Assembly: GCA_026982655.1 (NCBI GenBank) | Contig: JALSGO010000083.1 | Span: 30 to 64,029 of the forward strand | Reading direction: 5' to 3' | DNA: 64,000 nt | Source: Candidatus Bipolaricaulota bacterium | Lineage (GTDB): Bacteria; Bipolaricaulota; Bipolaricaulia; RBG-16-55-9 | In this document: positions 31,585 through 63,890 of the stretch, piece after piece | Layout: each line of letters begins with the position of its first letter | Position numbering within the stretch: the first letter of the stretch is position 1 | Translations under genes and position numbers: made by a program | Notes under the pieces: model-generated | Told to the model about the DNA's origin: nothing | Seen by the model: the letters and a program-made list of their open reading frames with translations, nothing else | The model's database searches: none

Positions 31585-31587
31585 GGC

Positions 31588-32502: not shown

Positions 32503-32530
32503 GAGCCCGAGGAAAGGGGAGGGATCTCTC

Positions 32531-35848: not shown

Positions 35849-35923
35849 AGGGCAGAGCGGACGACCGTCGATCGCCCTTGCCCTCGCAACCACAACGAAG
35901 AAGAGAAGAGAGGAGAGGAGAGG

Positions 35924-36238: not shown

Positions 36239-36245
36239 TTCCCCC

Positions 36246-38663: not shown

Positions 38664-38722
38664 GCGGCCTGCTCTGCCGGACGAAGCCATTCGGAAGCGA
38701 GAGGAAGGGAGGAAAGGAACTC

Positions 38723-39373
38723 ATGAACCCGCAGGAACGATGGAACGATGCTCTGACGCCGGAGAAGGAACCGACCGAGGGAGCTCTCTCGACGCCGCCC
38801 CCGGACGGCGCGTCCGAGGGGACCGGAGAGGGGCGGTCCCCTAAGGGGCGAACCGTGGGGATCGCCCTGATCCTCGCCGTGGTCGTGGGGATCGGCATCG
38901 GGTACTCGCTGTATTCCTTGCGGGCCGAGAGGGTGTCCGGGCTGGCGTCCACGGGGAGGGAGGTAGACCGGGGCCTCGGCGGCGGCATGCCGGCGATCGT
39001 GGTGGCCCCGCTGCTTAGGGATCTCGGGGAGGTGAGCGTCCAAGGGGGGACGGTGACCACCTTCTTCACCGTGCGCAATCCCGGGGACGGGGTGCTGGTC
39101 ATCACCGACATGGAGACTTCCTGTATGTGCACGGAGGTCGCTTTGATCGTGGACGGCGTGGAAGGCCCTCGACTCGGGATGCGCGGCCACGGTCCGCGGC
39201 CCGAGTGGTCGGCCCGGCTGAACCCGGGCGAGGAGGCGACCCTTAAGGTCTACTACGACCCCACGGTACACGAGGAGCTACGCGGACCGGTCACCCGCGT
39301 GGTGCGGGTTCACACGAACGTCCCCACCCGTCCCTACGTGGACATCTTGATCGATCTGGTGCAAACGGACTGA
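38723..39373 (+). CDS. DUF1573 domain protein (SCxCT motif variant SCMCT), membrane-anchored
   Basis: TM anchor, then FTVRNPGDGVLVITDMETSCMCT matching the DUF1573 signature N-G-PL-I-SCGCT; GGAGGAAAGGAA RBS. Confidence 0.65.
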   Translation: MNPQERWNDALTPEKEPTEGALSTPPPDGASEGTGEGRSPKGRTVGIALILAVVVGIGIGYSLYSLRAERVSGLASTGREVDRGLGGGMPAIVVAPLLRDLGEVSVQGGTVTTFFTVRNPGDGVLVITDMETSCMCTEVALIVDGVEGPRLGMRGHGPRPEWSARLNPGEEATLKVYYDPTVHEELRGPVTRVVRVHTNVPTRPYVDILIDLVQTD

Positions 39374-39424
39374 CTCCCGTGGGCAGACCGAAGGCTACAC
39401 GACAATCGGGGAGGGAATGCCAAG

Positions 39425-40000
39425 GTGATGAACGGGGAATCGAGGGACAAGGACCAAGGTCAGAATACGGAGATGCACGCGATCCGCCGCCGGGCGGCCT
39501 TCTTGAGCCGAGGCGGAGTGAGCCTGCCCCTCCTGATCATCGGGGTCCTCCTGGCCCTGGGGACGACTGCGGGCCTGGGGTATTTGCGTCTGGCGGGCCC
39601 ACCGGCGGCAGGCCCTCCGCGCATCGAGGTCACGCCGGAGCTCATCGAGTTCGGAGAGATCTCCCCCACCGAGAAGGCGGTCGTGGAGTACCGTGTGCGA
39701 AACGCCGGGGGAAGCCCGTTGGAGATCACCCGCGTGAGCACCTCGTGTGGGTGCACCACCGCCGAGGTCGGCAAGACGACGCTCCTCCCCGGCGAGACGA
39801 CTCCGTTGCGCGTCACCTTCGACCCCCAAGCGATGCGGGCCGAAGGGCTCAACGAGGAGGACATCTACCGGATCATCTTCCTAAGGAGCAACGACCCCGA
39901 GCGGCCGGAGGTTACCGTCGAGCTTCGCGGTCGCGTCCTGCCGTCGGACTCGGACTCGAACTCGAACTCGGAGCCGGAGTCTGCCGTCGAGGGGAGGTAA
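39425..40000 (+). CDS. DUF1573 domain protein (canonical SCGCT motif), membrane-anchored, (DS/NS)n-rich C-terminus
   Basis: YRVRNAGGSPLEITRVSTSCGCTT signature; paralog of the preceding gene. Confidence 0.7.
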   Translation: MMNGESRDKDQGQNTEMHAIRRRAAFLSRGGVSLPLLIIGVLLALGTTAGLGYLRLAGPPAAGPPRIEVTPELIEFGEISPTEKAVVEYRVRNAGGSPLEITRVSTSCGCTTAEVGKTTLLPGETTPLRVTFDPQAMRAEGLNEEDIYRIIFLRSNDPERPEVTVELRGRVLPSDSDSNSNSEPESAVEGR

Positions 40001-40098
40001 CCGAAGCGCTCGGTTGGGGCCGGGCACGGGGGACGGCCCCCTAATCCCACCCCAGGAGGGAAGGGAAAGGGGAAGCTTCCTGAAGGAAGAAGAAGCCC

Positions 40099-45347: not shown

Positions 45348-45371
45348 ATCCCACCCCACGGGGGGTGGGAT
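45348..45371 (+). promoter_or_regulatory. CsoR-type operator, perfect inverted repeat ATCCCACCCC-ACGG-GGGGTGGGAT lying between -35 TTGATC and -10 GATAAT
   Basis: Read directly; 18-bp spacer promoter fully occupied by the palindrome; downstream gene is cytochrome b. Confidence 0.65.
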
Positions 45372-48309: not shown

Positions 48310-48331
48310 CCCACCCCCTCTGGGGTGGAAT
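48309..48331 (+). promoter_or_regulatory. CsoR-type operator (imperfect): ACCCACCCC-CTCT-GGGGTGGAAT between -35 TTGACC and -10 AATAAT (17-bp spacing)
   Basis: Read directly; paralogous to the 45331-45375 module (CATGACGCA..TCATT..CCCACCCC..GGGGTGG.ATAAT). Confidence 0.55.
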
Positions 48332-48784: not shown

Positions 48785-49270
48785 GTGCCAATGCCTAAGA
48801 AGACGAACAAGGATCGGAAGGTCAAGCAGCAGCGTCTACTCCGGCAGGGGGCGGCCGGGGGCTGGCGGCCCTGGGCCTTTGGGGCCGTCACCCTCGGGGT
48901 GCTAACAGCCGCGTTTGGGCTGCTCTTGCCGAAGTTCTTCGCCGACGGTCCCGCAGCGGACGGGGAGGCCAACGTCATCCTGGTCGAAGCGGACATGGCC
49001 GGGCTCTATCCCAAGGAGATCCGGGTCAAGGCCGGGGAGCCCGTGACCATCCGCCTGCGCAGCTTGGACAACCGGTTCCACCTGGACGGGGGAGGCAAGC
49101 ACCAGTTCGCCATCGACGAGCTGGGGGTCAACATCATCGCTCCGCCGCTCGGCACGGCCGAGGCCACCTTCATCCCTACGGAACCGGGTGAATACGAGTT
49201 CTACTGCGACATCTGCTGCGGCGGGCGGGCCAACCCGACCATGGTAGGGAGGCTGATCGTCGAGCTATGA
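48785..49270 (+). CDS. Cupredoxin-like domain protein (EYEFYCDICCGG motif), membrane-anchored
   Basis: Paralog of 42768-43142 (shared PGEYEF-xC motif and beta-sandwich core); GGAGCAGGAGG RBS. Confidence 0.6.
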   Translation: MPMPKKTNKDRKVKQQRLLRQGAAGGWRPWAFGAVTLGVLTAAFGLLLPKFFADGPAADGEANVILVEADMAGLYPKEIRVKAGEPVTIRLRSLDNRFHLDGGGKHQFAIDELGVNIIAPPLGTAEATFIPTEPGEYEFYCDICCGGRANPTMVGRLIVEL

Positions 49271-50109
49271 GCGCTCTGACCCAGATCTCCGCGCGCAAGG
49301 TGGTGCTGGCCTCGGCGATCGCCCTGGGGGTGATCGCCGCCGCGGTCTTCTTGGGGCTGCGGCACCCCTCCGCCCAGGCCGTCCCGATGAGCCCGCTCCT
49401 CCCGGCGGTGACGCTGGGGACCATCGTGGTGGCCGGGATCGTCGACGGGATCAACCCCTGTGCCTTCACGGTGCTCCTACTGTTCGTTACTGCCCTGCTC
49501 GCGAGCCTGCAAACCCGCAGCGACGTCGGGATCGCCGAGAACGTGGGGGCCACGCGCGCCCGGATCGTGGGGCTCGGCTCCATCTACATCGCAGCCATCT
49601 TCCTCACCTACCTGGCGCTGGGGGCGGGGCTCTTGGTGACGGCAGATCTCTTCGTGCGGGAGCACCTGCCCGCCCGGATCGGGGCGCTGCTCGCCATCTT
49701 CCTCGGGCTGTGGATGCTCAAGGACTACTTCCTGCCCGGGTGGGGCTGGCGGCTGGGGGCCCCCAAGGTCGTGGGGGAGTGGGCCCGGCGCGCGGCCCGG
49801 AAGATGACCGTCCCGGCGCTGGCGCTCGGGGGCTTTCTCATCGGGCTCTGCACCGTGCCCTGCAGCGGGGCGGTCTACCTGGCGGTGCTGGCGCTCCTCT
49901 CGACCCAGCCGACCGCGACGGCCTTCGGGTACCTGGTGCTCTACAACCTGATGTTCATCCTCCCGTTGGTCGGGGTGCTGGCCGTGGCCGCGTCGCGCCC
50001 GGCGCTGAACCGCTTGGCCCGCTGGAACCTCCACCACCGGGAGGGGGTCCGGCTGGCCTTGGGGTCGGGTGTCGTGCTCATGGGGCTGTTCATCCTGTAC
50101 ACCGTCTAG
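49267..50109 (+). CDS. Cytochrome c biogenesis CcdA/DsbD-family thiol-disulfide transmembrane protein
   Basis: Two TM-embedded Cys (DGINPCAF; CTVPCSGAV) in 6-8 TM helices. Confidence 0.7.
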   Translation: MSALTQISARKVVLASAIALGVIAAAVFLGLRHPSAQAVPMSPLLPAVTLGTIVVAGIVDGINPCAFTVLLLFVTALLASLQTRSDVGIAENVGATRARIVGLGSIYIAAIFLTYLALGAGLLVTADLFVREHLPARIGALLAIFLGLWMLKDYFLPGWGWRLGAPKVVGEWARRAARKMTVPALALGGFLIGLCTVPCSGAVYLAVLALLSTQPTATAFGYLVLYNLMFILPLVGVLAVAASRPALNRLARWNLHHREGVRLALGSGVVLMGLFILYTV

Positions 50110-50159: not shown

Positions 50160-50480
50160 GTGAACAACCATCATGCGGGAGGCGGCAAGCCCTGCCACGT
50201 CGAGCGGCTGGAGAAAGAGGTGGACATGGAGGCGCTGCGCTCCACCCGGGTCAGCATCCTGGCGGTGACGGGGATGGGGTGTCCCAACTGTGCCCTGCGG
50301 GTGCACAACGCGCTCCTCGCCCTCCCCGGCGTCCATCGGGTGGACGTGGAGCTGGAGGCCGAGCGGGCGATCGTCTACTGGGACCCGACCGCCCTGCAGC
50401 CGGAGAGGCTGATCGAGGCGGTCTCCCAGGCTGCGGCGGGGACCCCTCACGACTACCGGGCGTACTTCGTGAAGCCGTAG
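50160..50480 (+). CDS. Heavy-metal-associated (HMA) domain protein, CopZ-like (GMGCPNC)
   Basis: MxCxxC motif in beta-alpha-beta-beta-alpha-beta context; AGGAGAAAGGAGG RBS before GTG 50160. Confidence 0.65.
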   Translation: MNNHHAGGGKPCHVERLEKEVDMEALRSTRVSILAVTGMGCPNCALRVHNALLALPGVHRVDVELEAERAIVYWDPTALQPERLIEAVSQAAAGTPHDYRAYFVKP

Positions 50481-50642
50481 CGGAGCCACAGACGCAGAGC
50501 GGGGCTGCCCGGGGCCCGAGTCACCGTCGTCGCATCGGCTTCCACCTCCGCCCCGGGCAGCTCCCCGCCCTGCCCGCCGACGGCAGGGAGCTCCCACACA
50601 CGGGGAGAGAAGGAGAAAGGGAAGACACAAGGAGGGATTTCC

Positions 50643-51173
50643 ATGGACCTTAGGCTCATCGCCGTTGCGATCGTCTCCTTGGCGCTGGGGTTCCTCTTGG
50701 CCTCCGGCCTGCGCCCGGAGGTCGGGGTGGGGCCTTCGGAGGCGGAGCGGATCTTGGAGCGGCTGCGGCGCGAGATCATCCCGGAGGAGGGCAGCCCCAC
50801 GGGCTACGGGATCGCCTTCAGCGAGGCGGGCTACCAGACCCTGGTGGCCAAGAACCGCACACTCAGCGTCCCGCCCGAGCGGGCGGACGACTTCGAGGGC
50901 CTGGACATGAGCCTGCCCTGCTGTCCCTTCCAGAGCCCGAGCGTCGACGAGGCGAAGAACTGCCCGTGCGAGCACCATCAGGCGCTCTACGGGCTGGCCA
51001 AGTGGCTCCTCCAAGAAGACTATCCCGCAGACCGGGTCCAGGAGGAGGTGGCGCGCTGGAGCCGCTACCTCTTCCCCAAGGAGGCGCTGCGGGCGGAGAT
51101 GGAGCGGCGGGCGAAGCTCGATCCCGCCGTCGAAGCCGCCCTGGAGGAGCTCAAGGCCAAGGGGAAGTGCTAG
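50643..51173 (+). CDS. Membrane-anchored Cys-rich hypothetical protein (LPCCPF...NCPCEHH motifs)
   Basis: N-terminal TM helix; two CC/CxC clusters plus HH; AAGGAGGGA RBS. Confidence 0.5.
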   Translation: MDLRLIAVAIVSLALGFLLASGLRPEVGVGPSEAERILERLRREIIPEEGSPTGYGIAFSEAGYQTLVAKNRTLSVPPERADDFEGLDMSLPCCPFQSPSVDEAKNCPCEHHQALYGLAKWLLQEDYPADRVQEEVARWSRYLFPKEALRAEMERRAKLDPAVEAALEELKAKGKC

Positions 51174-52541: not shown

Positions 52542-52590
52542 GGAGGGCCGGACTTGACAACCCTCCCCGGATGGGGTACAGTGAGACCAT

Positions 52591-52613
52591 ATCCCACCCC
52601 AGGTGGGGTGGAT
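52591..52613 (+). promoter_or_regulatory. CsoR-type operator (imperfect): ATCCCACCCC-AGGT-GGGGTGGAT immediately before GATAAG and the MMPL gene start
   Basis: Read directly; TTGACA at 52554-52559 upstream. Confidence 0.5.
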
Positions 52614-52618: not shown

Positions 52619-55573
52619 GTGAAGCGAATGGCCCGAGGGCCGGACTTCCTGATACGTTGGCGCGTGCCGCTGCTGGTCGCCGTCCTGGTGGCCACCGCGC
52701 TCTTGGGCGCGGCGGTCATGGGAGCCAAGCTCAACGCCGACTTCTCCACGTATCTTTCCCAAGACAGCCCGCTCGTCCGGGAGTTCAACCGCGTCGGCGA
52801 GGTCTTCAAGGCCAACTACGTCGGCATGGTCCTCGTCCGGACCGAGGATCTGTTCACCCCCGAGAACCTCAGGCTGCTGGATCGCCTGACCCGAGCGTAT
52901 AAGTCCATCGAGGGCGTCGACTCGGTGACCAGCCTCACCAACGCCGTCGACTTCCGGCGGGCCGACGGCGGCCTGGTTGTGGGAAAACTCCTCGAGGGCA
53001 AGCCCCTCCCGACGGCGCCCGAGGAGCTGGAGAGGTTCAAGCGCTACGTGCTCTCCAAGGAGATGTACGTCGGCGCGTTGGTCAACGCCAAGGGCACCAC
53101 CGCCGTGATCCTGGTGCGCCTGCTTCCCAAGGTGAATCACTTCAAGGTCGCCGGGCAGATCGACCAAGTCACCCAGGAGATCGCGCCCAATGCAGAAAAC
53201 ATCTACTACGGCGGGATGCCCTTCCTCATCTACTCCATGACCGGGCTCATCCTCGACAACCTCTTCTTCCTGGTGCCGCTGATCATCCTGTTGCTCGTGG
53301 GGGTGCTGGAGCTGGGTTTCCGCCGCCTGGGCGGGGTGCTCGCCCCCCTGACCGTGGTGCTGCTCGCCGTGGTCTGGACGATGGGGATCCTGGCGCTCCT
53401 GGGCCGCCCGATCGACCTTCTGACCGGGATCGTCCCCATCATCCTCATCGCGATGGGCTCGGCGGACGGGATCCACTTCATGCGGCGCTTCTACGAGGCG
53501 CGGGCCGCCGGAGCCGAGCGCCGCGAGGCCGTGAAAATCACAATGAGGGAGATGGGCACGCCGATCGTCTTTACGTCCATCACGACCATGATCGGGTTCG
53601 CCTCGCTGGCCATCTCGAACTTCGACATCATCCGGACGTTCGGCTGGGCCACCGCGCTGGGGATCTTCCTGGCGCTGGTCGTCACCCTGATCGTGCTCCC
53701 CGCCGGACTGTCCTTTGGCCGGGAGCGGGCCTCCGTGCCTGCCGAGACGGACAACAGCGGGAGGCCGCGCAGCGTCCGGGGAGGGAGCCGGGCGATGGCC
53801 GCCCTGGGCGGGGGGATCCACCGGCGTCCGGGCGCGATCGCGCTCCTGACGGTGGGGGTGATCGCGCTGGCCGCGGTGGGGATCCCCCGCATCGTGGTGA
53901 ACGTGGACTGGTCGCTCTGTCTGGCACGGGGCAGCAAGCCGTACTTGGCGGAGATGCTGCTGCGCCGGGAGTTCGGCGGCTCCCTGCCCCTGCTCGTGTC
54001 CGTGAAGGGCGACGTCAAGGACCCGGCGACGCTGGAGACGATGCGGGCCGTGGAGCGCCACCTCGACGCGCTGCCCGAGGTGAGCGAGGCCGAGTCGATA
54101 GCGTCGGTGCTGGCGGAGATGAACTGGACGCTCAACGGGCGCTTCGCCGTGCCCACCGAGCGGGCTCAAGTCAACAACTTGTGGTTCCTGCTCCAGGGAC
54201 AAGACGTGCTCGATCAGATGGTCCGCTCGGACAACCAAGAGGCGCTGGTGCAGGCGAAGGTGGCCTCGCTGGGCACGGCGGTGATCAGCCGGGTGGTCGA
54301 GGACGTGAACGCCTTCTTGAGCCGCCTGCCCCAGAAGTTGGTCGTCGTGGACGCCGCCCAAGCGCCCCCGGATGCTCAACAGGCGCTGAGGGAACTCCAA
54401 GCTCAGCAAGTGAAAGAGGCTCTGGCTCAAGACCTGCGGGCCAAAGGCCTTTCGGTTGAACCCGCGGCGCTCGAAGCTGTTGTTGAGGCAGCGCAGAGCT
54501 GGACCCCCGGCGAACCCGACTACGCGGCGCTCGGCGAAGCCATTGAGAAATATTTGCTGAGCCCCGAGTCCGAGGTGCCGTTCGACGACCCTGCACAGGC
54601 CGCGACGATAGCCGAGTCGATCACCACAGCGCTCAGCGAGCGAGGCGGACGGCCATTGAGTGTCTCTGAGTTAGAAGCGTTGCTGCGCCCCCAGGTCGAG
54701 ACGTCCTACCCCGAGGACGTGGCCTGGCTGGCAGAGGCGTTAGTTTATCGCGTCGATGAGTTTTTAGATGCCCGTCGCGTGGAGGCGGCTTACGCGCAGC
54801 TGGCCGCCCAGCTGCCCCCGGAGGCGCGCTCCAACACGGATCTTGCGAAGAAGCTGCGCGGCGACCTTTGGGGGCTGACGACTGCGACGCTGGCGCTCGG
54901 TCCCCAGCAGTACGAGTCCCTGCAGGCCCAATATGGTCTGGACCTCGCGCGGACGGTGACCCTGGCCGCCGAGCCCTCGGGCCTAGCCCCGGTGCTGGAT
55001 CAGATGGAGAAGGAGCTGCTCCCCACCCAGATCGAGAGCACGGCGCTGGCCTTGTTGGCCGTGACGCTCTTGCTGATTTTGGTGTTCCGCTCGCTGCGGG
55101 CGGGGCTTTTGGGGATCGTCCCCGTGGGCCTGACCATTCTGGTCAATTTCGCAGTGTTAGGCTACTTCGGCATCGGCCTGGACTCGTTCACCGCGATGAT
55201 CGCCAGCATCACCATCGGCCTGGGGATCGACTACGCGATCCACTTCACCCACCGCTTCCGGAAGGAGTTCGAGCGCTCCGGCGACGAGCGGACGGCCCTC
55301 ATCACCACGTTGCAGACGACGGGCGTGGCGATCCTCATCAATTCGTTTTCGGTGGGCGCGGGGTTCGCCGTGCTGCTCTTGGCCGGCGGCCAGCACATCC
55401 GGCTCTTGGGAGGCCTTACGGCAATAGCGCTCCTGGTGAGCGCGCTCTTCACCCTGGTCGTGCTCCCGGCGCTCACGCTCTTGTGGAAGCCGCGCTACTT
55501 TCAGACCCCCGTCGTCGTGGAGCCGAAGCTGCGCCCTGAGCCCGAAGCCGAGAGGGGAGTTCAAAGCGCGTGA
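52619..55573 (+). CDS. RND superfamily transporter, MMPL family (984 aa, large periplasmic domains)
   Basis: Duplicated 6-TM bundles, MMPL motifs (GSADGIHFMRRF; GLGIDYAIHFTHRF); real start may be ATG 52628 (leaderless). Confidence 0.8.
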   Translation: MKRMARGPDFLIRWRVPLLVAVLVATALLGAAVMGAKLNADFSTYLSQDSPLVREFNRVGEVFKANYVGMVLVRTEDLFTPENLRLLDRLTRAYKSIEGVDSVTSLTNAVDFRRADGGLVVGKLLEGKPLPTAPEELERFKRYVLSKEMYVGALVNAKGTTAVILVRLLPKVNHFKVAGQIDQVTQEIAPNAENIYYGGMPFLIYSMTGLILDNLFFLVPLIILLLVGVLELGFRRLGGVLAPLTVVLLAVVWTMGILALLGRPIDLLTGIVPIILIAMGSADGIHFMRRFYEARAAGAERREAVKITMREMGTPIVFTSITTMIGFASLAISNFDIIRTFGWATALGIFLALVVTLIVLPAGLSFGRERASVPAETDNSGRPRSVRGGSRAMAALGGGIHRRPGAIALLTVGVIALAAVGIPRIVVNVDWSLCLARGSKPYLAEMLLRREFGGSLPLLVSVKGDVKDPATLETMRAVERHLDALPEVSEAESIASVLAEMNWTLNGRFAVPTERAQVNNLWFLLQGQDVLDQMVRSDNQEALVQAKVASLGTAVISRVVEDVNAFLSRLPQKLVVVDAAQAPPDAQQALRELQAQQVKEALAQDLRAKGLSVEPAALEAVVEAAQSWTPGEPDYAALGEAIEKYLLSPESEVPFDDPAQAATIAESITTALSERGGRPLSVSELEALLRPQVETSYPEDVAWLAEALVYRVDEFLDARRVEAAYAQLAAQLPPEARSNTDLAKKLRGDLWGLTTATLALGPQQYESLQAQYGLDLARTVTLAAEPSGLAPVLDQMEKELLPTQIESTALALLAVTLLLILVFRSLRAGLLGIVPVGLTILVNFAVLGYFGIGLDSFTAMIASITIGLGIDYAIHFTHRFRKEFERSGDERTALITTLQTTGVAILINSFSVGAGFAVLLLAGGQHIRLLGGLTAIALLVSALFTLVVLPALTLLWKPRYFQTPVVVEPKLRPEPEAERGVQSA

Positions 55574-55624
55574 GGAATTTCGTCGGGGAGAGAATATCCC
55601 GTACAATAACAGGAGGTTGTTCCC

Positions 55625-56407
55625 ATGAAGCGTAGTGGAAGTAGAACGAGAACGGTGATCCTCGGACTGACGGTGACGTTGCTCCTGGCGGTCGGCGCTT
55701 GGGCGATCACGGGCGACGAGGTGCTGCAGAGGTCTCAAGAGGCGATGCGGCCCGGCCAGGACGCGACGATCACGGAACGGATGACGATCGCCAAGCCCGA
55801 CGGCCAGACGGACGTGCTGGAGCTCAAGATGTACATGAAGGGGGAGAAGACGCTGATCCGCGTCCTCGCCCCGGAGGACTTCGCGGGCATTGGGCTGTTG
55901 ATCCTGCCCCAGGAGGACGGCGGCGAGGAGATCTGGCTCTATCTTCCGGCCTTCCGGGACGTGAAGCAGATCGTGGCCGAATCCTTGAGCGAGGGCTTCG
56001 TCGGCTCGGACTTCGCCTACGAAGATCTCACGGTGCGCTACACCTCCAAGTGGGACGTGACCTCCATGAGCGAGGAGGAAGGGCAATACGTCCTGACGCT
56101 GGCTCCCAAGCCCGAGGCCCAGCTCAGTTACAGCGGGGCGCGCATGTGGGTGGACCAGGAGACGTTCCTGCCCACGCGGGCGGAGTTCGACCGGGAGGGA
56201 GAGCTGCTCAAGGTGCTGACCCTCTCGGAAGTGCAGGACTTCCCCAGCGTCGCGGACCCCGAGACGAGCTACCCCACCCCGACGCGGATCGAGATGGCCA
56301 ACGTGAAGACGGGGAGCCGGACCCTCATCGAGCTTTTGGAGGTCGAGTACGACACCGGGCTCTCGGACGACTTCTTCACCGTACGCAACCTCAAGCGGGG
56401 CGAATAA
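55625..56407 (+). CDS. LolA-like outer-membrane lipoprotein-sorting family protein (MMPL-associated)
   Basis: Signal peptide, LolA-like half-barrel signature (IWLYLPAFRDVKQI...GSDFAYEDL); paralog of 60626-61486. Confidence 0.65.
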   Translation: MKRSGSRTRTVILGLTVTLLLAVGAWAITGDEVLQRSQEAMRPGQDATITERMTIAKPDGQTDVLELKMYMKGEKTLIRVLAPEDFAGIGLLILPQEDGGEEIWLYLPAFRDVKQIVAESLSEGFVGSDFAYEDLTVRYTSKWDVTSMSEEEGQYVLTLAPKPEAQLSYSGARMWVDQETFLPTRAEFDREGELLKVLTLSEVQDFPSVADPETSYPTPTRIEMANVKTGSRTLIELLEVEYDTGLSDDFFTVRNLKRGE

Positions 56408-56460
56408 GACTGGACTGAGCTAAGATAGCCGTACACAAGCCGTAAAGGGAGAGGAGGGGG

Positions 56461-57798
56461 ATGGGAATGGCGCAAGCGACGGCGACGGCAGATCGCACGG
56501 AAGCCCAAGTGCGAGCGGTTTTAGACCGCCTGCTCGAGGCCATCCGCCCGAGGGAGTTCGCCGTGCGACTCTGGAACGGGGAGGTCATCGAGCCCGACCC
56601 CGGCCATCCGGCCCGCTTTACGCTCGTACTTAACCACCCGGGCGCGCTGGGGCGGATGCTCTGGCCGCCCTCGGACCTCACGATAGGAGAAGCCTACATC
56701 CGGGGGGACTTCGACGTCGAAGGAGATCTCATCGCCGCCTTCTCGCTGCGGGAGCACTTCACCCGCCCGCCGTTCCGCCTTACGGAGATGCTGCGCATGG
56801 TCCGCGTCCTGCGCCGAGCGGCCCGGACGGCCCCTCCCCTCCAGCCCGATCGAGGGCCCGCGCGCCTGCGCGGGGCGCGCCACTCCAAGGAGCGGGATCG
56901 GGCCGCCGTCCGCTACCACTACGACGTGGGCAACGACTTCTACGCCCTGTGGCTCGACCGCAACATGGTCTACTCCTGCGCGTATTTTGAGACGGGCACC
57001 GAAGATATTGACACAGCCCAGGAAGCCAAACTGGACTACATCTGCCGCAAGCTGCGCCTTCAGCCGGGAGAACGGCTGTTGGACATCGGCTGCGGCTGGG
57101 GCGGACTCCTGATGCACGCGGCCCAGCACTACGGCGTCGAGGCCGTCGGCATCACGCTAAGCCCCCCGCAAGCCGAATGGGCCCGGGAGCGCATCCGCGA
57201 GCGGGGGCTCGCCGACCGCTGCCGGGTGGAGGTCGCCGACTATCGCGACTTCGACGAGGGCCCCTTTGACAAGCTGGTGAGCGTCGGGATGTTCGAGCAC
57301 GTGGGCGCGAAGATGCTCCCCGTCTACTTCCAAAAGGCCTGGTCGCTGCTTAAGCCCGGCGGGGTTTTTCTCAATCATGGGATTACGCTGGGCCCGGGCC
57401 CGCGCGACGAGCCGAGCTGGTGGGGACGCACGCTCTTTAAGCAGGGGCTGTTCATCCAGCGATACGTCTTCCCCGACGGCGAGCTGGAGCCGATCCACGA
57501 GTCGCTCCAGGCCGCCGGTGAGGTGGGCTTTGAACTTAGGGATGTGGAGTCGCTGCGCGAGCACTACGCGCTCACCCTGCGCCGCTGGGTCCAGCGCCTG
57601 GAGGCCCGCCACGACGAGGCCGTCCGCGCCGCGGGCGAGGCCGTTTATCGCATCTGGCGACTGTTCATGGCCGGATCGGCGTATCACTTCGAGATCGGGA
57701 GGCTCAACGTCTACCAGGCGCTCTTCGTCAAGCCCGATCGCGGGCGGAGCGGTTTGCCTCTGACCCGAGCCGACTGGTATGCTCGCCCTAGTTCCTAG
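56461..57798 (+). CDS. cfa: Cyclopropane-fatty-acyl-phospholipid synthase family SAM-dependent methyltransferase
   Basis: YDVGNDFYALWLD, LLDIGCGWGGL, VSVGMFEHVG and the other CFA synthase motifs. Confidence 0.8.
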   Translation: MGMAQATATADRTEAQVRAVLDRLLEAIRPREFAVRLWNGEVIEPDPGHPARFTLVLNHPGALGRMLWPPSDLTIGEAYIRGDFDVEGDLIAAFSLREHFTRPPFRLTEMLRMVRVLRRAARTAPPLQPDRGPARLRGARHSKERDRAAVRYHYDVGNDFYALWLDRNMVYSCAYFETGTEDIDTAQEAKLDYICRKLRLQPGERLLDIGCGWGGLLMHAAQHYGVEAVGITLSPPQAEWARERIRERGLADRCRVEVADYRDFDEGPFDKLVSVGMFEHVGAKMLPVYFQKAWSLLKPGGVFLNHGITLGPGPRDEPSWWGRTLFKQGLFIQRYVFPDGELEPIHESLQAAGEVGFELRDVESLREHYALTLRRWVQRLEARHDEAVRAAGEAVYRIWRLFMAGSAYHFEIGRLNVYQALFVKPDRGRSGLPLTRADWYARPSS

Positions 57799-57815
57799 GG
57801 AAAGGGGGTGATACG

Positions 57816-58022
57816 ATGAACGAGTCGTTCACCGATCCCGTCTGCGGGATGACGATCGATAAGAGCCAAGTCGCCGCGACCCTCGAGTACGGAGGGAAAA
57901 CGTACTACTTCTGCTCCCCCGGCTGCAAGGTCGCCTTCGAGCGCGAGCCCGAGAGGTATGCCGAGTCGGAGTCCAAGCCGGAGTCCTCGGAGGGGAGCGC
58001 TCCCGGGTCGTCCTCTCCTTGA
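57816..58022 (+). CDS. YHS/TRASH domain small protein
   Basis: DPVCGMTID...YYFCSPGCKVAF, same motif as the copA2 N-terminus. Confidence 0.7.
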   Translation: MNESFTDPVCGMTIDKSQVAATLEYGGKTYYFCSPGCKVAFEREPERYAESESKPESSEGSAPGSSSP

Positions 58023-58060
58023 AGTTCACCCCTTGGATAAACGAGGGAGCGCGAAAGCCT

Positions 58061-58106
58061 CCCGGACCGGCGGGGACCGAGGGACATCCCTCCCCGCCGG
58101 TCCGGG
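58061..58106 (+). terminator. Strong GC hairpin: 15-bp perfect stem CCCGGACCGGCGGGG / CCCCGCCGGTCCGGG with 16-nt loop, 39 nt after the YHS gene stop
   Basis: Inverted repeat read directly; no U-tract. Confidence 0.3.
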
Positions 58107-58188
58107 GCCGAGGACGGACCCCGCCCTCTCCACAAGATCTCCACAGCTCTTTCACCGGGACTTCACACCCCCTCCCTAAGGTGTCCTC

Positions 58189-60585
58189 ATGTCGACGCGA
58201 TCGCTCAAGGAGGAGAATCCCTCGATCATGTACAAGAAATACGTGGAATGGGTGCTGAACCGCCCCAAACTCGTGCTCGCGCTGATCGCGCTGGTGACCC
58301 TGGGGTTCGCCGCGGGGCTCCCGCGCATCCAGACGGACACCGACCCCGAGAACATGCTCCGTCCCGACGCCCCCATCCGCGTCTACAACGACCAGGTCAA
58401 AGCTTGGTTCGACCTCCAAGACGTGCTCGTCTTAGGGATCGTCAACGACCAAGACCCCAACGGGGTCTTGAACGCCCAAACGCTGGGGAAGATCTACCGC
58501 ATCACCCAAGAGATCCTCAAGATCGAGGGCGTCGTCCGCCGCAACGTCTGGAGTTTTCCGACGACCAACCACATCCGGGTGCGGGGAGGCACCCTCGTCC
58601 AAGAGCGTTTGCTCAAGACCGATCGGCCCACGGATGCCGACATCGCCGCGCTCGCCCAGGCCCTCGACGGAAACCCCCTCTTCGAGCGCATTCTCATCTC
58701 GGACGACCGCACGTTGGCCGCCCTCTACATCCCCGTGGAGGACGACGTGGACGCGAAACCCATCACGGATCGCATTCAGGAGATCGTCCAAGCCGAGGGC
58801 GGGCCGGAGGAGTATTACCTCGGCGGACAGCGCGTCGCCGAGGACGTCTTCGGGGTGCTGATGTTCCAACAGATGCTGCTGCTCTCGCCCTTGGTGGCCC
58901 TCGTCATCTGGGTGGGCTTGTGGCTCATGTTTCGAAGGCTGCGCTTTGCGTTTGTCTTCTCCCCCTTGTTGATCGCCTTGGTCTCGGTGATCTGGACGAT
59001 GGGGCTCATGATCTGGCTCGGGATCCCCGTCCACATCATGAGCTCCATGGCCCCCGTGTTTCTGATGAGCATCGGCGTGGTCGACGGGATCCACATCCTC
59101 AGTGAGTTCGTCGATCAGTACCCTAAGAGCCGCAACCGCCGCCGAGCGATCCTCGACACCCTGGTGGCCCTCAAGCGGCCCCTGCTCTACACCTCGCTGA
59201 CCACCGCCGTCGGCTTTGCGTCTTTGTACTTCACGGACATCCCGCCCGTTAGGGTCTTCGGGGTGTTCGTGGCCTTCGGGATCCTGGCCGCCTGGGTGCT
59301 TACGATCACCATGGTCCCGGCGATCGTGATGGTCCTGCGCGAGCAGGATGCCAAGGAGCTCGCTGCCAAGGAGAACCGCCTGGCCCGCGGGCTCCAAGCC
59401 CTGGGACGCTTCAGCATCCGGCGCCGCCGGGCCGTGCTCGTCGGGGGCCTCCTCGCTTTGGCCGTCGCGGGCTTCGGGCTGACTCAAATTCACATCGACG
59501 ACAGCCCCGTCTGGTGGTTCAAGAAGGGCCAGCCCATCCGCGAGGCCACCGCTTTATTGAACGAGAAGCTGGGAGGGACTTCGCTCCTGTATGTCGTGCT
59601 CGAGGGGGAGAAGGGCACGATGAAAGAACCCGAGGTGCTGCGGTACCTCGAGGAACTCCAGCGGTATCTGGAAGAATCCCCGTTGGTGGGCAAGACGACC
59701 TCGCTGGCCGACGTCGTCAAACGCATCAACGAGGCCTGGAACGACGACGATCCTCGGTATCGCGTGATCCCCGACTCCCGCAGGGCCGTAGCTCAGTTCC
59801 TGCTGCTGTACCTCTCCTCGGGGGACCCCAGCGATCTACAAGACTTCGTGACCCATGGCACGGGCTACGACAAGGCCAACGTCATCGTACAGGTGAAGAG
59901 CCCCGGTTCGGCGGCCATGGAGCGGGTCGTAGCACGGGCGCAAGCCTTCGTAGAGGGGAATCCGCCGCCCCGGGGGGTGCGGGTGAGCTTCGCCGGGCCG
60001 GGGTACTTCAATGCGAAGTGGAACGAGGAGATGTTCCGCGGGATGATGCGCGCCGTGGCCGGGGCCACCCTCGTCGTGTGGTTGCTGCTGTCGCTCAACT
60101 TCCGCTCGATGCGTTGGGGGATCGTGGGGCTGCTCCCCTTAGGGTTTACGATCGTGTTCACCTACGGGATGCTGGCTTTGCTGGGGGTGCCCTTCACCAT
60201 GCCCATCGAGGTGATCTCGGCCCTCTCGCTGGGGATGGCCGTGGACTTCGCCATCCACTTCGTCCAACGCTTCCGCGAGCGCTACGCCGAGACTCAAGAC
60301 GTAGAGGGCTCCTTGAGGTGGACCATGGGCGGGCCCGGCGTGGCCATTTTGCGCAACGCCGTCATCCTGTTTGTGGGCTTTACGGTGCTGATCTTCGCGC
60401 CGCTTACGCCGTATATCACCGTGGGGGTCTTTATCGCGATCATCATGGCCCTAAGCTCGCTGACCACGCTCTTCTTCTTGCCCGCGCTCATACGGCAGTT
60501 TGCCCCCTGGCTGGTGGACCGGCCCGCGCGGGCGGCCGTCCCCGCGGCCGCTGAAGTGGAAGCGGAAGTGGAACCGAAAGCCTAA
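58189..60585 (+). CDS. RND superfamily transporter, MMPL family (third copy)
   Basis: 798 aa; motifs GVVDGIHILSEF and GMAVDFAIHFVQRF; 12 TM helices. Confidence 0.8.
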   Translation: MSTRSLKEENPSIMYKKYVEWVLNRPKLVLALIALVTLGFAAGLPRIQTDTDPENMLRPDAPIRVYNDQVKAWFDLQDVLVLGIVNDQDPNGVLNAQTLGKIYRITQEILKIEGVVRRNVWSFPTTNHIRVRGGTLVQERLLKTDRPTDADIAALAQALDGNPLFERILISDDRTLAALYIPVEDDVDAKPITDRIQEIVQAEGGPEEYYLGGQRVAEDVFGVLMFQQMLLLSPLVALVIWVGLWLMFRRLRFAFVFSPLLIALVSVIWTMGLMIWLGIPVHIMSSMAPVFLMSIGVVDGIHILSEFVDQYPKSRNRRRAILDTLVALKRPLLYTSLTTAVGFASLYFTDIPPVRVFGVFVAFGILAAWVLTITMVPAIVMVLREQDAKELAAKENRLARGLQALGRFSIRRRRAVLVGGLLALAVAGFGLTQIHIDDSPVWWFKKGQPIREATALLNEKLGGTSLLYVVLEGEKGTMKEPEVLRYLEELQRYLEESPLVGKTTSLADVVKRINEAWNDDDPRYRVIPDSRRAVAQFLLLYLSSGDPSDLQDFVTHGTGYDKANVIVQVKSPGSAAMERVVARAQAFVEGNPPPRGVRVSFAGPGYFNAKWNEEMFRGMMRAVAGATLVVWLLLSLNFRSMRWGIVGLLPLGFTIVFTYGMLALLGVPFTMPIEVISALSLGMAVDFAIHFVQRFRERYAETQDVEGSLRWTMGGPGVAILRNAVILFVGFTVLIFAPLTPYITVGVFIAIIMALSSLTTLFFLPALIRQFAPWLVDRPARAAVPAAAEVEAEVEPKA

Positions 60586-60625
60586 TGGAGAGATTTTACA
60601 GAACCCCATAGGAGGTTGACCGACC

Positions 60626-61486
60626 ATGAGGCAGAGCACAAGCAACAGACTCCTCACGACCGGACGGACGTTGGGGCTCCTGGCCCTGGGGCTGCTCCTC
60701 ACGCTGGGGGCCTTCCCCGTGGTCCTCACGCAGGCCCAAGCGCAAGGTCCCTCGGCGGAGGAGATCATGCAACAGGCGAAGGACCGCTGGCAGGGCGAGG
60801 ATTTCACGTCGGCCGTGCGGCTTACGACCGCGGAGCCCGGCGGCGGGGAGACCGTCCTCGACGTCGACTTCAAGGCCAAGCTCATCGAGGAGAGCCGGGA
60901 CTCGGGTGCGTTCCGCTACAAGGTGTTGGCCCGCGTCACGGCCCCGGAGGACGTAGCGGGCTGGGCGGTCCTCATCTGGGAGCAGGAGTTCCCCACCCCG
61001 GACGACATCTGGCTCTACCTGCCGGCGCTCGAGTCCACGAAGAAGATCTCGCTGGAGAACTTCCGTAACCCGCTCTTTGGAAGCGAGTTCGTGTTCGAGG
61101 ACGTCATCGGGCGCGAGCCGGGGCTCGACACCCACGAACTCCTGCGGGAGGAGACCCTCAACGTCGGCGGCGAGGACCGCCCCGTCTGGGTGATTAAGAG
61201 CACGCCTCAGGACCCCGATCTGGCGGGCTTCGCCTACCGCATCACCTACGTGGACCGGGAGACGCTCTTGGAGCTCCGCATGGAGCTCTACAACGACACC
61301 GACGCGTTGATCAAGCTCTACCAAGCCGAGGAGGTGCGAGAGCTGCAGGGCATCCCCACGTGGGTTACGGCGACGGCGGAGAACCTCGAGACGGGTCGAG
61401 TCACCACCTTCGAGTTCCTCGAGCCGGTCTACAACACGGGCGTTCCGGACGAGATCTTCGACCCGGAGCGGTTGGGGCAGCCGTAA
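60626..61486 (+). CDS. LolA-like outer-membrane lipoprotein-sorting family protein (MMPL-associated)
   Basis: Signal peptide; IWLYLPALESTKKI...GSEFVFEDV, paralogous to 55625-56407. Confidence 0.65.
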   Translation: MRQSTSNRLLTTGRTLGLLALGLLLTLGAFPVVLTQAQAQGPSAEEIMQQAKDRWQGEDFTSAVRLTTAEPGGGETVLDVDFKAKLIEESRDSGAFRYKVLARVTAPEDVAGWAVLIWEQEFPTPDDIWLYLPALESTKKISLENFRNPLFGSEFVFEDVIGREPGLDTHELLREETLNVGGEDRPVWVIKSTPQDPDLAGFAYRITYVDRETLLELRMELYNDTDALIKLYQAEEVRELQGIPTWVTATAENLETGRVTTFEFLEPVYNTGVPDEIFDPERLGQP

Positions 61487-61502: not shown

Positions 61503-61543
<41 letters not shown>

Positions 61544-61681: not shown

Positions 61682-63124
61682 ATGAATGAGAAGACGTGGA
61701 TGATCGTGATGGTCGTGCTCGCGCTGGCCCTGGGACTGTGGTGGCTCTCCACACCGAAAGGCCCCCGGATGGAGATGGGGCAGAGAGCGGCCCCTGCGGC
61801 CGAGGAGGCCGTAGCCGGGGCTCAAGGGGGGCTGAACCGCCTGGCGTTCGTCGACCCGAGGACGGGCAGTCGGTTCACGGTCGAGGTCGGCCCGGCCACC
61901 CACGGCGTAGGCGTCCTGCCGGACGGCTCGAAGGCGTACGCCACCAGCTTCGGCGCCGACGAGATCTCCGTAGTCGATTTGGCCCAGAAGAAGACGGTCA
62001 AGACGATCTCCATCGGGGCCAAGTCCCACCATGTCGAGATCAGTCCCGACGGGCGTTGGGCCTACATCACCGCCGCGGACGACACCGTGGCCGTGATCGA
62101 CACCCGCACCGACACCCTGGCCGCGAAGATCGCCGTCCCGCCCGGCCCGATGTACGCCGTCTTCTCGCCCGACGGGCGCTTCGCGTACGTCACCAGCATG
62201 AAGGGCGGCGTGGTGAGCGTCCTCGACGTCGAAGCCCAGCAAGTCGTCCGGGAGATCCCCGTCGGGAAGGGGCCGGATCACGCGGCGCTCACCCCCGACG
62301 GGCGCTTCCTCTACGTCGCAAACCGCAACGACGGGACCGTGAGCGTCATTGACACCCAGCAGGGGAGCGTTATAGCGACGATCCCCGTGGGGAAGGGACC
62401 TCATGGGGTGGCCGTCGTCGAACGCGGTGGGAAACTGCTCGTCTTTGTGGGCAACCGCGGCGAGACGACGATCTCCATCATCGATCCCACGACGAACGCA
62501 GTCCTCGAGACGTTCGATCTGGGGGTAAGCCCCGAGCACCTCACGCCCTCCTTCGACCGCAAGACGCTCTACATCGGGAGCATCCCCGCGAAGCAGCTCT
62601 TCGTCTACGACGTCGAGCGCGGGGAGATCGTGCAGCGCTTCGACGTCGAAGGGGAGATCCACCAGATCGTCGTCGTGCCCCCACGCCAACAGGCCCGCAT
62701 GCCCATGCCGAGGATGCCCATGGAGCCTGAGCAAGAGAAGGGGAAAGAGATGGGCATGCCTATGGAAGTCGAGTACGAGCTCGTCGAGGTCGAGGGCGGC
62801 AGCTACCGAAATATCGACGCCCCCACCCTCTGGGCGATGCTCCAACAGAAGGACTTTCTGCTGATCAACGTCCACATCCCCTACGCGGGCGAGCTGCCCG
62901 AGACGGACTTGTTCATCCCCTTCAACGCCATTGAAGAAAACCTCGACAAGCTCCCGGAAGACAAGGACACGAAGATCGTGGTCTACTGCCGCAGCGGGCC
63001 GATGAGCGCGAAGGCCGCCGCGACGCTGGTGAAGCTGGGCTACACGAACGTCTGGAACTTAGAGCAGGGGATGCGCGAGTGGCAGGCGGCGGGGTTCCCA
63101 CTCTTGACGAACAAGGCGGAGTAG
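61682..63124 (+). CDS. Membrane-anchored YVTN-family beta-propeller protein with Met-rich linker and C-terminal rhodanese domain
   Basis: Repeated ...SPDGR.AYV...G.VSVID... blades; MPMPRMPME...MGMPME Met-rich segment; rhodanese active-site loop VVYCRSGPMS; GAGGAGGGGA RBS. Confidence 0.7.
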   Translation: MNEKTWMIVMVVLALALGLWWLSTPKGPRMEMGQRAAPAAEEAVAGAQGGLNRLAFVDPRTGSRFTVEVGPATHGVGVLPDGSKAYATSFGADEISVVDLAQKKTVKTISIGAKSHHVEISPDGRWAYITAADDTVAVIDTRTDTLAAKIAVPPGPMYAVFSPDGRFAYVTSMKGGVVSVLDVEAQQVVREIPVGKGPDHAALTPDGRFLYVANRNDGTVSVIDTQQGSVIATIPVGKGPHGVAVVERGGKLLVFVGNRGETTISIIDPTTNAVLETFDLGVSPEHLTPSFDRKTLYIGSIPAKQLFVYDVERGEIVQRFDVEGEIHQIVVVPPRQQARMPMPRMPMEPEQEKGKEMGMPMEVEYELVEVEGGSYRNIDAPTLWAMLQQKDFLLINVHIPYAGELPETDLFIPFNAIEENLDKLPEDKDTKIVVYCRSGPMSAKAAATLVKLGYTNVWNLEQGMREWQAAGFPLLTNKAE

Positions 63125-63131: not shown

Positions 63132-63886
63132 ATGGTCTTAGACCCATCCGAGCCCAACCCGGCGCAAAAGGCGATGCCCTCGAAGGCCTTCCCCATAGAT
63201 CCGGAAGCGACGGGGGTCACGCGGGCGCGCTACGACCGCGTGGCCCCCGTCTATGACCTCTACGAAGGCCTGATGGAAGGGCTCTTCTTCCGCTCGTGGC
63301 GGCGGCTCGTCTGGGGCGCCGTCCAAGAGCACCTGGAGCACCTGCAGCAAATCGCAGCCGCCACGAGCGCAGCGAAGCCCCGCTTGCTGGAGGTCGGCGT
63401 GGGCACGGGCAAGAACCTGCCCTACTACCCCGGAGGCGTCGAAGCCCTAGCCATCGACCTCAGCGAGAAGATGCTGGAGCGCGCCCGGAAGCGGGCTCTC
63501 AAGCTGGGAAAGCCCGTAGATTTGCTCCCGATGGACGCCCAGGCCCTCGCCTTCCCCGACGAGTCCTTCGACGTCGTGGTGGCCACGTTCGTGTTCTGCT
63601 CTGTGCCCGATCCCGTCCTAGGGCTCCGCGAAGTCAACCGGGTATTGAAGCCCCACGGACAGGTGGTTTTGCTGGAGCACATGCGTCCGCGCTCCGAGCG
63701 CTTGGGGAAACTCTTCGATCTCTTCAATCCCCTCGCCGTGAGGCTGACCGGGGCGAACATCAACCGCCGTACGGTCGAAAACGTCCGCAAGGCGGGCCTC
63801 GAACTTGAGAGCGTAAGGGAGCTCTCGGCCCAAGGAATCGTAAAGCTTATCGTAGCCCGAAGGGGCTCACCCGAAGGAGGTCAGCC

Positions 63887-63890
<4 letters not shown>
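63132..63890 (+). CDS. Class I SAM-dependent methyltransferase (UbiE/COQ5-like)
   Basis: LLEVGVGTGKNL motif I, acidic post-I and DVVVATF motif. Confidence 0.7.

Follow-up and report, generated by a model that had tools for sequence, protein, structure and literature searches.

Why would a bacterial copper island encode three transporters of the MMPL group, pair two of them with LolA-like periplasmic carriers and place a membrane-lipid enzyme in the same run of genes? The question is raised by a 64,000-nucleotide (nt) stretch of contig JALSGO010000083.1 (assembly GCA_026982655.1) from an uncultivated Candidatus Bipolaricaulota bacterium, hereafter the window. Near its right end lie pump 1 and pump 2 with their carriers LolA1 and LolA2, a homologue of cyclopropane-fatty-acyl-phospholipid synthase (CMAS) and a small YHS protein; a third pump, pump 0, lies upstream beside the gene for the regulator CsoR. 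We propose that CsoR, released by Cu(I), switches on cyclopropanation together with the proton-driven export of a lipid-like molecule to a periplasmic carrier, a tentative reading to which we give somewhat less than an even chance.

The first unit opens with a sigma-70-type promoter on the + strand (TTGACA-17-TACAGT, 52554–52582), the sole promoter-like site between 52 and 62 kb, followed 11 nt past the −10 box by a CsoR-type operator, CCCACCCC-AGGT-GGGGTGGA (52593–52612), just ahead of the start of pump 1. Pump 1 (52628–55573, +; 981 amino acids) is an HAE3/MMPL-type pump of the RND (resistance-nodulation-division) superfamily and gives two MMPL stretches in Pfam (7e-37) plus a sterol-sensing/Patched match; ATG at 52628 is its likely start, with GTG at 52619 as an alternative. 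LolA1 (55625–56407, +; LolA_like PF17131, 2.5e-47, 161 bits against a cut-off of 30), CMAS (56461–57798, +; 1.6e-95) and a free-standing, cytoplasmic YHS/TRASH protein of 68 amino acids (57816–58022, +; 4e-19) follow. These four genes are co-directional with gaps of 18–54 nt, and we predict that they form one transcription unit under the putative CsoR operator. Pump 2 (58189–60585, +; HAE3/MMPL RND, 798 amino acids; Pfam MMPL 6e-41) and LolA2 (60626–61486, +; PF17131, 7.8e-42, 143 bits against the same cut-off) come next. Pump 0 (36246–38663, +; HAE3/MMPL RND; Pfam MMPL 3.5e-34) represents a narrow clade. Pfam finds every gene that the initial annotation of this DNA had named in its place and on the + strand, including the LolA-like partners downstream of the pumps at 52619 and 58189 and, between the two pairs, the cyclopropane-fatty-acid (CFA) synthase and the YHS protein. 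Its description of the surroundings as a copper island likewise holds, with P1B ATPases, CsoR, cupredoxins and a CopZ-like open reading frame (ORF) in the window, as does its placing of one MMPL gene under a CsoR-type operator, here 52594–52611 directly ahead of pump 1. One point needs correction: an MMPL pump is indeed present at 36246 after CopA and CsoR, but its partners are two DUF1573 genes rather than a LolA-like gene.

The link to copper is carried by this operator. It is a G-tract palindrome of the form CCCACCCC-N4-GGGGTGG(G/A), spotted in intergenic DNA, and the pattern CCACCC-N3-10-GGGTGG occurs 4 times in the window (32482–32499, 45351–45368, 48311–48328 and 52594–52611) against 0.08 expected from shuffles. 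In 2.28 Mb of the other fetched loci the pattern has only 2 matches, and L090, a contig related to the window, holds one of these. CsoR operators have been described as G-tract pseudopalindromes (PMC3902906). The window operators lack the TAC/GTA dyad of type-2 sites, and the canonical type-2 patterns TACCC-N-GGGTA and ATACC-N-GGTAT gave 0 matches. At two of the sites the operator stands in a recognizable promoter: the 11-mer CTTGACAACCC, which forms the −35 context, is identical at 32439 (...TATCGT) and 52553 (...TACAGT), and in both cases the operator begins 11–13 nt past the −10 box. The CsoR encoded in the window (35924–36238, +; Pfam Trns_repr_metal 1.5e-23; best NCBIfam match RicR) carries the ligand set Cys...His...Cys (ERYC, AHMKHC), as in Cu(I)-sensing CsoR. 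The persulfide sensor CstR has a Cys-only pattern, unlike the one seen here.

The same arrangement is kept in relatives of the window. In L170, whose pump 1 orthologue is 85% identical, the operator again lies upstream of the pump right after the −10 box (L170:3485), and in L171, which has matches at 5295 and 15442, it precedes the co-directional gene run that contains the pump. L174 has it ahead of an operon syntenic with the pump 0 operon of the window (L174:4277), and a further match lies at L173:14781. In the window, that operon is headed by the promoter TTGACA-17-TATCGT with its CsoR-type operator at 32481–32500 (together 32440–32500, +) and runs through Rieske, CopA1, CsoR, pump 0, two DUF1573 genes and CopA2 and onward. 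Only 7 nt separate csoR from the pump 0 gene in the window, compared with 20 nt in L174, and we predict that pump 0 belongs to a CsoR-autoregulated copA operon. The initial annotation's suggestion that the pumps take part in the copper response is partly supported. At the level of predicted sites it fits pumps 1 and 0, which stand behind CsoR promoter/operators; it does not extend to the pump 2 pair, which lacks a CsoR operator.

What kind of pumps are these? Identity between the pumps is only ~28% and between LolA1 and LolA2 ~30%, so both sets are old paralogues by sequence rather than recent duplicates. Their Pfam MMPL scores reach 119–141 bits against a cut-off of 20.5, with two MMPL stretches each. 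The best NCBIfam match of all three is the HAE3 model TIGR00921, at 248–266 bits (pump 1 266, pump 2 248), below the trusted cut-off of 351.9. The initial annotation had asked whether the pumps might fall into a characterized housekeeping clade, and their NCBIfam scores lie far under the cut-offs for HpnN, MmpL3, BstA and CusA. Membership in HpnN is rejected at 49–92 bits against 1100 (NF052374) and 107–139 against 752 (TIGR03480), and that in MmpL3 and BstA by scores far beneath their thresholds. For CusA/CzcA (TIGR00914, cut-off 701), pumps 0 and 2 give 24–25 bits and pump 1 no match, and that membership is rejected as well. The nearest named relatives of the pumps are metagenome-assembled genomes of Candidatus Bipolaricaulia, among the matches listed. 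This is also where the closest named of the more than 2900 relatives of pump 2 among those matches belong, while the pump 1 subfamily, of 950–985 amino acids, is spread over many phyla.

The predicted fold is that of an RND pump. Hydropathy of all three pumps fits the RND plan of 12 transmembrane helices (TM), and the N- and C-terminal halves match each other in BLASTP. An AlphaFold2 model of pump 1 built from 61 homologues (mean predicted local distance difference test score, pLDDT, 87.9; predicted TM-score 0.82) runs TM1, periplasmic domain 1, TM2–6, TM7, periplasmic domain 2, TM8–12, with an all-helical insert of ~190 amino acids within the second periplasmic domain. In a structure search with this model, MmpL5 and MmpL4 come out on top (E = 3e-27 to 1e-21; 13–15% identity), followed by HpnN, MmpL3 and NPC1-type sterol transporters, with AcrB lower; CusA is absent from the top 50 matches. 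By sequence, the pumps match PDB entries weakly, pump 2 giving Dispatched, MmpL4 and HpnN. Charged residues in TM4 and TM10 are invariant in the pump 2 family (D299/H302 in GVVDGIH and D686/H690 in AVDFAIH) and in the pump 1 family (D280/H283 and D868/H872), the pattern expected of an RND proton relay. HpnN, the hopanoid transporter of Burkholderia and Rhodopseudomonas, has the same family-level fold with 12 TM, falls in the same HAE3 neighbourhood of NCBIfam and moves lipid toward the outer membrane in a proton-driven manner; unlike the pumps here, it works without a co-encoded periplasmic partner (PMC6394551) and has no known link to copper regulation. Hopanoid genes (shc, hpn) are absent from the annotated neighbours in the window.

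Both carriers are predicted to be secreted. Neither signal peptide contains a lipobox cysteine, and that of LolA2 is of the AQA|Q type. LolA2 matches the PDB entries 9tp6 (1.8e-22), 3bk5 and 4z48 by sequence. An AlphaFold2 model of LolA1 (pLDDT 84.5) gives TM-scores of 0.74–0.84 against 3bk5, 9tp6 (Porphyromonas gingivalis LolA3), 4z48 and 3buu, and 0.76–0.84 against 9tp6 taken singly. Canonical LolA and LolB were rejected as identities, since the LolA1 model reaches TM-scores of only 0.4–0.5 with them and the partner is an RND pump rather than LolCDE. With the NCBIfam LolA3 equivalog, LolA1 scores 19 bits against a cut-off of 83 and LolA2 gives no match; by these comparisons the carriers share a superfamily branch with P. 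gingivalis LolA3 and are not its orthologues. That protein (PGN0947; 9tp6), of the same carrier subfamily, has a hydrophobic groove, does not pair with LolB and has been assigned "a separate function" (PMC13103446). Deletion of lolA3 in Flavobacterium johnsoniae had no phenotype (PMC11885536).

Do the pumps then simply expel Cu(I), in the manner of CusA, with the LolA-like protein as a CusF-type chaperone? The genes stand within a copper island under predicted CsoR control, with a YHS gene in the cassette, and the pump 1 family has four almost invariant residues in its second periplasmic domain (C431, M443, M472 and M498) that could form a metal site. CusCFBA is also comparable in coupling an RND pump and a small periplasmic partner in a copper-induced operon, the operator here being predicted only. 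It differs in pump family and carrier fold, and the window has neither CusB/CusC nor Met-rich metal sites that we could find: no membrane-fusion or outer-membrane-factor genes of the CusB/CusC type are present in the annotated window, the CusA/CzcA scores are negligible and CusA lies outside the top 50 structures. The carriers contain no cysteine, no histidine in LolA1 and one in LolA2, and no Met-rich motif. Beyond this, 144 of the 153 other module loci among the matches listed have no copper neighbours. We consider direct Cu(I) efflux very improbable. A hydrophobic cargo is favoured because the carriers and the periplasmic loops of the pumps are poor in metal-ligand residues (the loops have few Met, His and Cys), because the CusA-type scores are negligible and because the nearest structures move lipids or lipophilic siderophores.

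The last of these reasons raises another candidate for the cargo, a copper-binding small molecule or lipophilic copper complex of the metallophore or chalkophore type, exported much as MmpL4/5 export siderophores with accessory proteins. The MmpL4/5–MmpS4/5 systems resemble the pairs in having a periplasmic accessory protein and a role in metal homeostasis. Their second periplasmic domain also carries a helical insertion, as does that of the pump 1 model, whose nearest structures they are. They differ in that the accessory here is LolA-like rather than MmpS, and NCBIfam puts the pumps nearest to HAE3 and not in the mycobacterial MmpL clades, so that membership in MmpL4/5 is rejected as well. 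A further parallel comes from P. gingivalis and Prevotella, where operons of MMPL and LolA-like genes rank with the most metal-responsive genes and rise 13- to 223-fold upon iron depletion (PMC10434189). These Bacteroidota operons, whose carrier is annotated as an "outer membrane lipoprotein-sorting protein", also encode ABC ATPases and a regulator of the TetR type, and what they respond to is iron or haem rather than CsoR and copper. The MmpS6/MmpL6 locus affects the copper response of Mycobacterium bovis (PMC9048740), and the cassette itself encodes a Cu(I)-binding YHS protein. Against a metallophore stand the low identity to MmpL4/5 of only 13–15%, a likeness common to the lipid transporters HpnN and MmpL3, and the finding of no non-ribosomal peptide synthetase, polyketide synthase, isonitrile or other ligand-biosynthesis genes in the annotated window or in related islands. 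We regard this explanation as unlikely, if worth keeping in mind; a variant of our own proposal takes the cargo to be a lipophilic copper complex.

Whatever is carried, the genomic evidence that pump and carrier physically work together is strong, because natural fusions of the two exist. They occur in both the pump 1-type and pump 2-type families (P0039, P0077, P0094, P0153 and P0192), and in them the former signal peptide forms a thirteenth TM after TM12, leaving the LolA-like domain on the periplasmic side. Synteny agrees. In genome-collection and metagenome scans, which among the matches listed returned mostly relatives of 40–46% identity plus 7 close ones, 80 genome loci from many phyla encode a 39–46%-identical pump 2 relative, and 73 of them have a LolA-like gene downstream of it on the same strand, at a distance of no more than ~400 nt in 68 of those 73. 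At least 3 of the 7 exceptions are contigs that end just past the pump. In the combined set the proportion is 125 of 153 loci. One relative may hint at a contact surface. In L171 the 72%-identical pump 1 orthologue (L171:8873–11400) lacks the ~190-residue helical insert (query residues ~575–761), and the LolA-like gene beside it has shrunk to an 18-codon remnant. Because insert and LolA-like gene were lost together, the insert may be the carrier docking site.

A comparable pairing occurs in AmeABCD of Castellaniella defragrans, in which the HAE3 pump AmeD is genetically coupled to a LolA-superfamily protein (DUF1329) and gives tolerance to monoterpenes (PMC6394551). By analogy, the pairs could expel hydrophobic damage products, such as those of lipid peroxidation, or membrane-active xenobiotics, induced alongside the copper genes as a general envelope-stress measure. 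The DUF1302 outer-membrane protein in L172, comparable to AmeA, is consistent with this, as are the non-copper orthologues that lie beside genes for ArsR-family helix-turn-helix (HTH) proteins, DUF302 and rhodanese. The full four-component Ame cassette (DUF1302, DUF1329, BNR-like protein, HAE3) was rejected for the window, which has neither a DUF1302 barrel nor a BNR protein, DUF1302 appearing only in the distant L172. The window instead has a two-gene form with a short PF17131 carrier, under predicted CsoR/copper control rather than in terpene metabolism, and a CsoR operator points to a copper-specific signal. We judge general efflux of this type to be quite unlikely.

The lipid side of the proposal draws on CMAS and its counterparts. 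The protein has an N-terminal DUF7884 domain and the motifs LDIGCGWGG, for S-adenosylmethionine, and GMFEHVG; its Pfam match spans model positions 1–272 of 273 (320 bits). NCBIfam gives 392 bits for CfaB (cut-off 650) and 250 for the E. coli-type Cfa (cut-off 400). It is a member of the family, with cyclopropanation or another acyl-chain methylation as its predicted activity. CMAS adjoins the pump 1 orthologue in L170 as well, where the whole cassette of pump, LolA, YHS and CMAS is kept. Other lipid-modifying enzymes near the pumps are PEMT/ICMT and patatin in L171/L172 and UbiB in L172; in the window, a PmtA-like methyltransferase and a geranylgeranyl-reductase-like flavoprotein are weak matches, under their cut-offs. 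Taken together, these predicted activities reinforce the lipid theme. The YHS protein, with the cysteine pattern C10-X22-C33-X3-C37, has counterparts that accompany the module in L170, L171, L172, L086 and L090.

We propose the following sequence of events. As cytoplasmic Cu(I) rises, CsoR would leave its operators. CMAS would then turn unsaturated acyl chains of phospholipids into cyclopropane rings, which should remove peroxidation-prone double bonds and tighten the membrane. The proton-driven pump would extract its cargo, which should be hydrophobic or amphiphilic and is most likely a membrane lipid or lipid-like compound, from the cytoplasmic membrane's outer leaflet and pass it into the hydrophobic groove of the LolA-like protein, which could then cross the periplasm to the outer envelope layer. 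In the cytoplasm, the small YHS protein would buffer or relay Cu(I). Pump 2 and LolA2 are expected to use the same mechanics under non-CsoR control; as at orthologous loci, their regulator may be of the response-regulator or ArsR type. Such a process may amount to envelope remodelling within the copper response. It is also conceivable, though we find it rather doubtful, that pairs of HAE3 pumps and LolA3-type carriers make up a widespread proton-driven lipid route that has been wired to CsoR together with cyclopropanation in Bipolaricaulia and some others.

Several points weigh against this proposal. The lipid cargo is extrapolated from HpnN, MmpL3 and the carrier fold, the regulatory conclusions are all predictions from sequence, and the nearly invariant C431, M443, M472 and M498 could form a metal site. 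Besides the window, a single close relative, L170, shows the link to CMAS, and the wider set of 153 loci among the matches listed gives only 2 weak CMAS matches. Ahead of pump 2 there is no CsoR-type palindrome. Its relatives in L082, L168 and L169, which make up 3 of the 7 better-sampled close loci besides the window, lie outside copper islands and have ArsR-type regulators, DUF302 or rhodanese/YgaP genes for neighbours. In L088 the 10 kb upstream are free of copper genes, and little downstream sequence is available. Copper genes lie near the module in only 9 of the 153 wide-family loci among the matches listed, where a copper gene means a P1B-ATPase, YHS or multicopper-oxidase match in the flanks, by a tblastn criterion that also catches non-copper P-type ATPases. 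Finally, related contigs share ancestry, so that recurrence among them is partly synteny.

The low count in the 40–46%-identity family leads us to reject a copper link as a general property of the module. The initial annotation's tie between pumps and copper survives in a narrower form: close relatives of all three pumps do occur in copper islands. Of the informative close loci, 8 of 13 are linked to copper, compared with 9 of the 153 wide-family loci (Fisher p = 2e-6, uncorrected for shared ancestry, among the matches listed), a close-clade statistic that rests on few loci. For pump 1, the island in L171 (72% identity) contains beta-CASP, HAD, cytochrome b, CopA, Rieske and YHS genes, and that in L172, a different genome with 48% identity, runs from multicopper oxidase, YHS, PEMT/ICMT, UbiB, FtsH and FTR1 through the pump, LolA-like and DUF1302 genes to YHS-CopA, cupredoxin, YHS and patatin. 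Close pump 2 relatives (58–70% identical) lie in copper islands in L084, L086 and L090, which are alike in holding YHS, CopA, CsoR, Rieske, cupredoxin, multicopper oxidase, beta-propeller, rhodanese and methyltransferase genes. The pump 0 relative of L174 lies in a region syntenic with the window and that of L173 in a further copper island, but that of L175 lies outside such islands. Some wide-family loci (e.g. L042, L140, L059 and L020) also carry CopA, YHS or multicopper-oxidase genes co-directional beside the pair.

The same comparisons bear on whether any functional link need be assumed, for the pump–carrier modules might be mere passengers of a mosaic stress island. The islands are indeed mosaics with differing gene orders; what lies upstream of the 90%-identical pump 2 orthologue is unrelated, and the locations of the pump 2 orthologues in L082, L168 and L169 and of L088 fit this explanation too. 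Passengers would not be expected to have a CsoR operator between promoter and pump 1, kept in L170 and L171, nor would pump 0 be expected as close to csoR as it is in the window (7 nt) and in L174 (20 nt). The copper association, moreover, recurs in the relative with only 48% identity, L172. We find a passenger origin improbable and return to copper-induced lipid export as the preferred reading.

If copper induction applies to pump 1, how is pump 2 controlled? The intergenic region between the YHS gene and pump 2 folds at −75.7 kcal/mol (z = −3.3; 0 of 200 shuffles as good) and contains a hairpin (58061–58106, +) with a G+C-rich stem of ~16 bp capped by a 3-bp stem-loop and no U-tract. This hairpin may be a terminator, an attenuator or an RNA-stabilizing element dividing the two pump units; it is not a known RNA family, as Rfam gave 0 matches at the gathering threshold over the whole window. 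Beyond it lie direct repeats (58126–58168, +), CTCCACA / TCTCCACA / TTCAC / TTCACA, spaced ~10–11 nt. The TCCACA/TTCACA repeats are shared with L088 (~9900–9950), which carries the 90%-identical pump 2 orthologue, despite diverged intergenic DNA, and form a candidate response-regulator site. Because of the hairpin, the conserved repeats and the missing CsoR site, pump 2 and LolA2 are probably under separate control. In L084 (~9930–9990) and L090 (~930–990), the pump 2 orthologues instead carry the palindrome TTCGA-N4-TCGAA just past a strong promoter; to judge from these sites, regulators differ among pump 2 orthologues. A beta-propeller–rhodanese fusion (61682–63124, +) and a UbiE/PmtA-like methyltransferase (63132–63890, +), both recognized by Pfam and NCBIfam, follow LolA2 and recur past pump 2/LolA2 in L084, L088 and L090. 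Pump 2 orthologues outside copper islands carry ArsR-HTH-rhodanese, YgaP-like or DUF302 genes (e.g. L168). A sulfur or persulfide connection is possible on the strength of these rhodanese-type companions.

The component families are all known, and what appears to be new is their wiring, with a predicted CsoR operator ahead of an operon for pump, carrier, CFA synthase and YHS protein. Three HAE3 pump lineages recurring as copper-island components likewise appear to be new. The CsoR regulons of Mycobacterium tuberculosis (the cso operon), Bacillus subtilis and Streptomyces lividans are similar in their Cys-His-Cys ligands, autoregulation with CopA and G-tract operators; they differ from the window's, which also takes in RND pumps, a LolA-like carrier, a CFA-synthase homologue, cytochromes b, Rieske and cupredoxins. 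In the literature we found no report of an HAE3/MMPL pump in a CsoR regulon outside mycobacterial transcriptomics. Copper damages unsaturated lipids, and the proposed lipid arm would fit this chemistry. If correct, the proposal would add the chemistry and transport of membrane lipids to the metal pumps and chaperones of the CsoR regulon, and could make active replacement or remodelling of envelope lipids a dedicated arm of copper defence beside CopA, CopZ and multicopper oxidase; scattered hints from mycobacterial MmpL6/TbD1 and the iron-responsive Bacteroidota operons run parallel to it. HAE3 pumps with LolA-like partners form an orphan module that is very common in environmental bacteria, with thousands of relatives, and the LolA3-type structures solved so far are orphans too. 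Although the uncultivated host is the main limitation, the conserved CsoR operator provides a concrete condition under which to seek both cargo and phenotype.

The wider setting of these genes is that of a large copper island. The window has a G+C content of ~66% and is coded almost wholly on the + strand from ~20 kb onward. Genes before ~32.4 kb are ordinary (an oligopeptide ABC transporter, HrcA-DnaK-DnaJ, a sigma-70 factor), and the island is therefore chromosomal. It includes two P1B ATPases with HMA/YHS domains (33191–35848 and 40099–42771) together with CsoR, two cupredoxins, a CopZ-like HMA ORF, a Rieske protein and two cytochromes b. Past the end of the window, an independent assembly of the same locus, L001, continues with a P-type-ATPase-like gene, a multicopper oxidase and another P-type ATPase. 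One L001 product (6362–8596) is a 744-residue protein without a Pfam hit that aligns at 33–40% identity to CopA-type ATPase regions of other loci; given this alignment, the number of P-type ATPase genes in the island is probably four or more, in addition to the multicopper oxidase.

The two remaining operators extend the predicted regulon. That at 45350–45369 lies ahead of a cytochrome b gene (45373), followed by an unknown gene and the geranylgeranyl-reductase-like flavoprotein, and that at 48310–48329 lies ahead of genes for a cupredoxin, an SfLAP-like membrane protein, a CopZ-like protein and a cytochrome b. The regulon as predicted is unusually broad, covering CopA, CsoR, Rieske, two cytochromes b, two cupredoxins and the CopZ-like ORF, and it also takes in beta-CASP, HAD and the flavoprotein genes; this composition hints at a copper-induced membrane redox chain. 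The CopZ-like HMA ORF (50160–50480) has a GMGCPNC motif and sits inside a longer mechanical ORF; after it, 50481–51173 encodes a 230-residue protein without a family match. The SfLAP-like protein (49267–50109) is of a kind, 280–410 amino acids long, that co-occurs with pump 0 orthologues. The latter (window, L173, L174, L086) always precede two DUF1573 genes, which in the window lie at 38660–39373 and ~39440–39945 (+; Pfam, and tblastn with proteins of L173, L174 and L086). An ORF at 39379–40000 looks gene-like by G+C content at third codon positions and was rejected as a wrong frame, the real gene being the second DUF1573. The first DUF1573 copy carries an S-C-M-C-T motif that could be a metal or redox site.

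A related arrangement is found on the Ralstonia insidiosa conjugative plasmid CP093305 (L176, record positions 23407–42015), which encodes a P1B ATPase, YHS, DUF2933 and an ICMT-family methyltransferase, and nearby a LolA-like protein with a MacB-like ABC transporter and UbiB, echoing L172. The likeness suggests that metal islands repeatedly contain LolA-like carrier modules, the energizing transporter differing between them. A tblastn search of plasmids with pump 1 returned nothing, and the fetched flanks contain no further pump 1-type loci. Lastly, a run of 39 G (61504–61542) separates the LolA2 stop from the beta-propeller–rhodanese gene where L001 has G9-A-G7. The run probably represents either an artefact of sequencing or assembly or else a hypervariable tract, and the gene order across it is confirmed by both L001 and L088.

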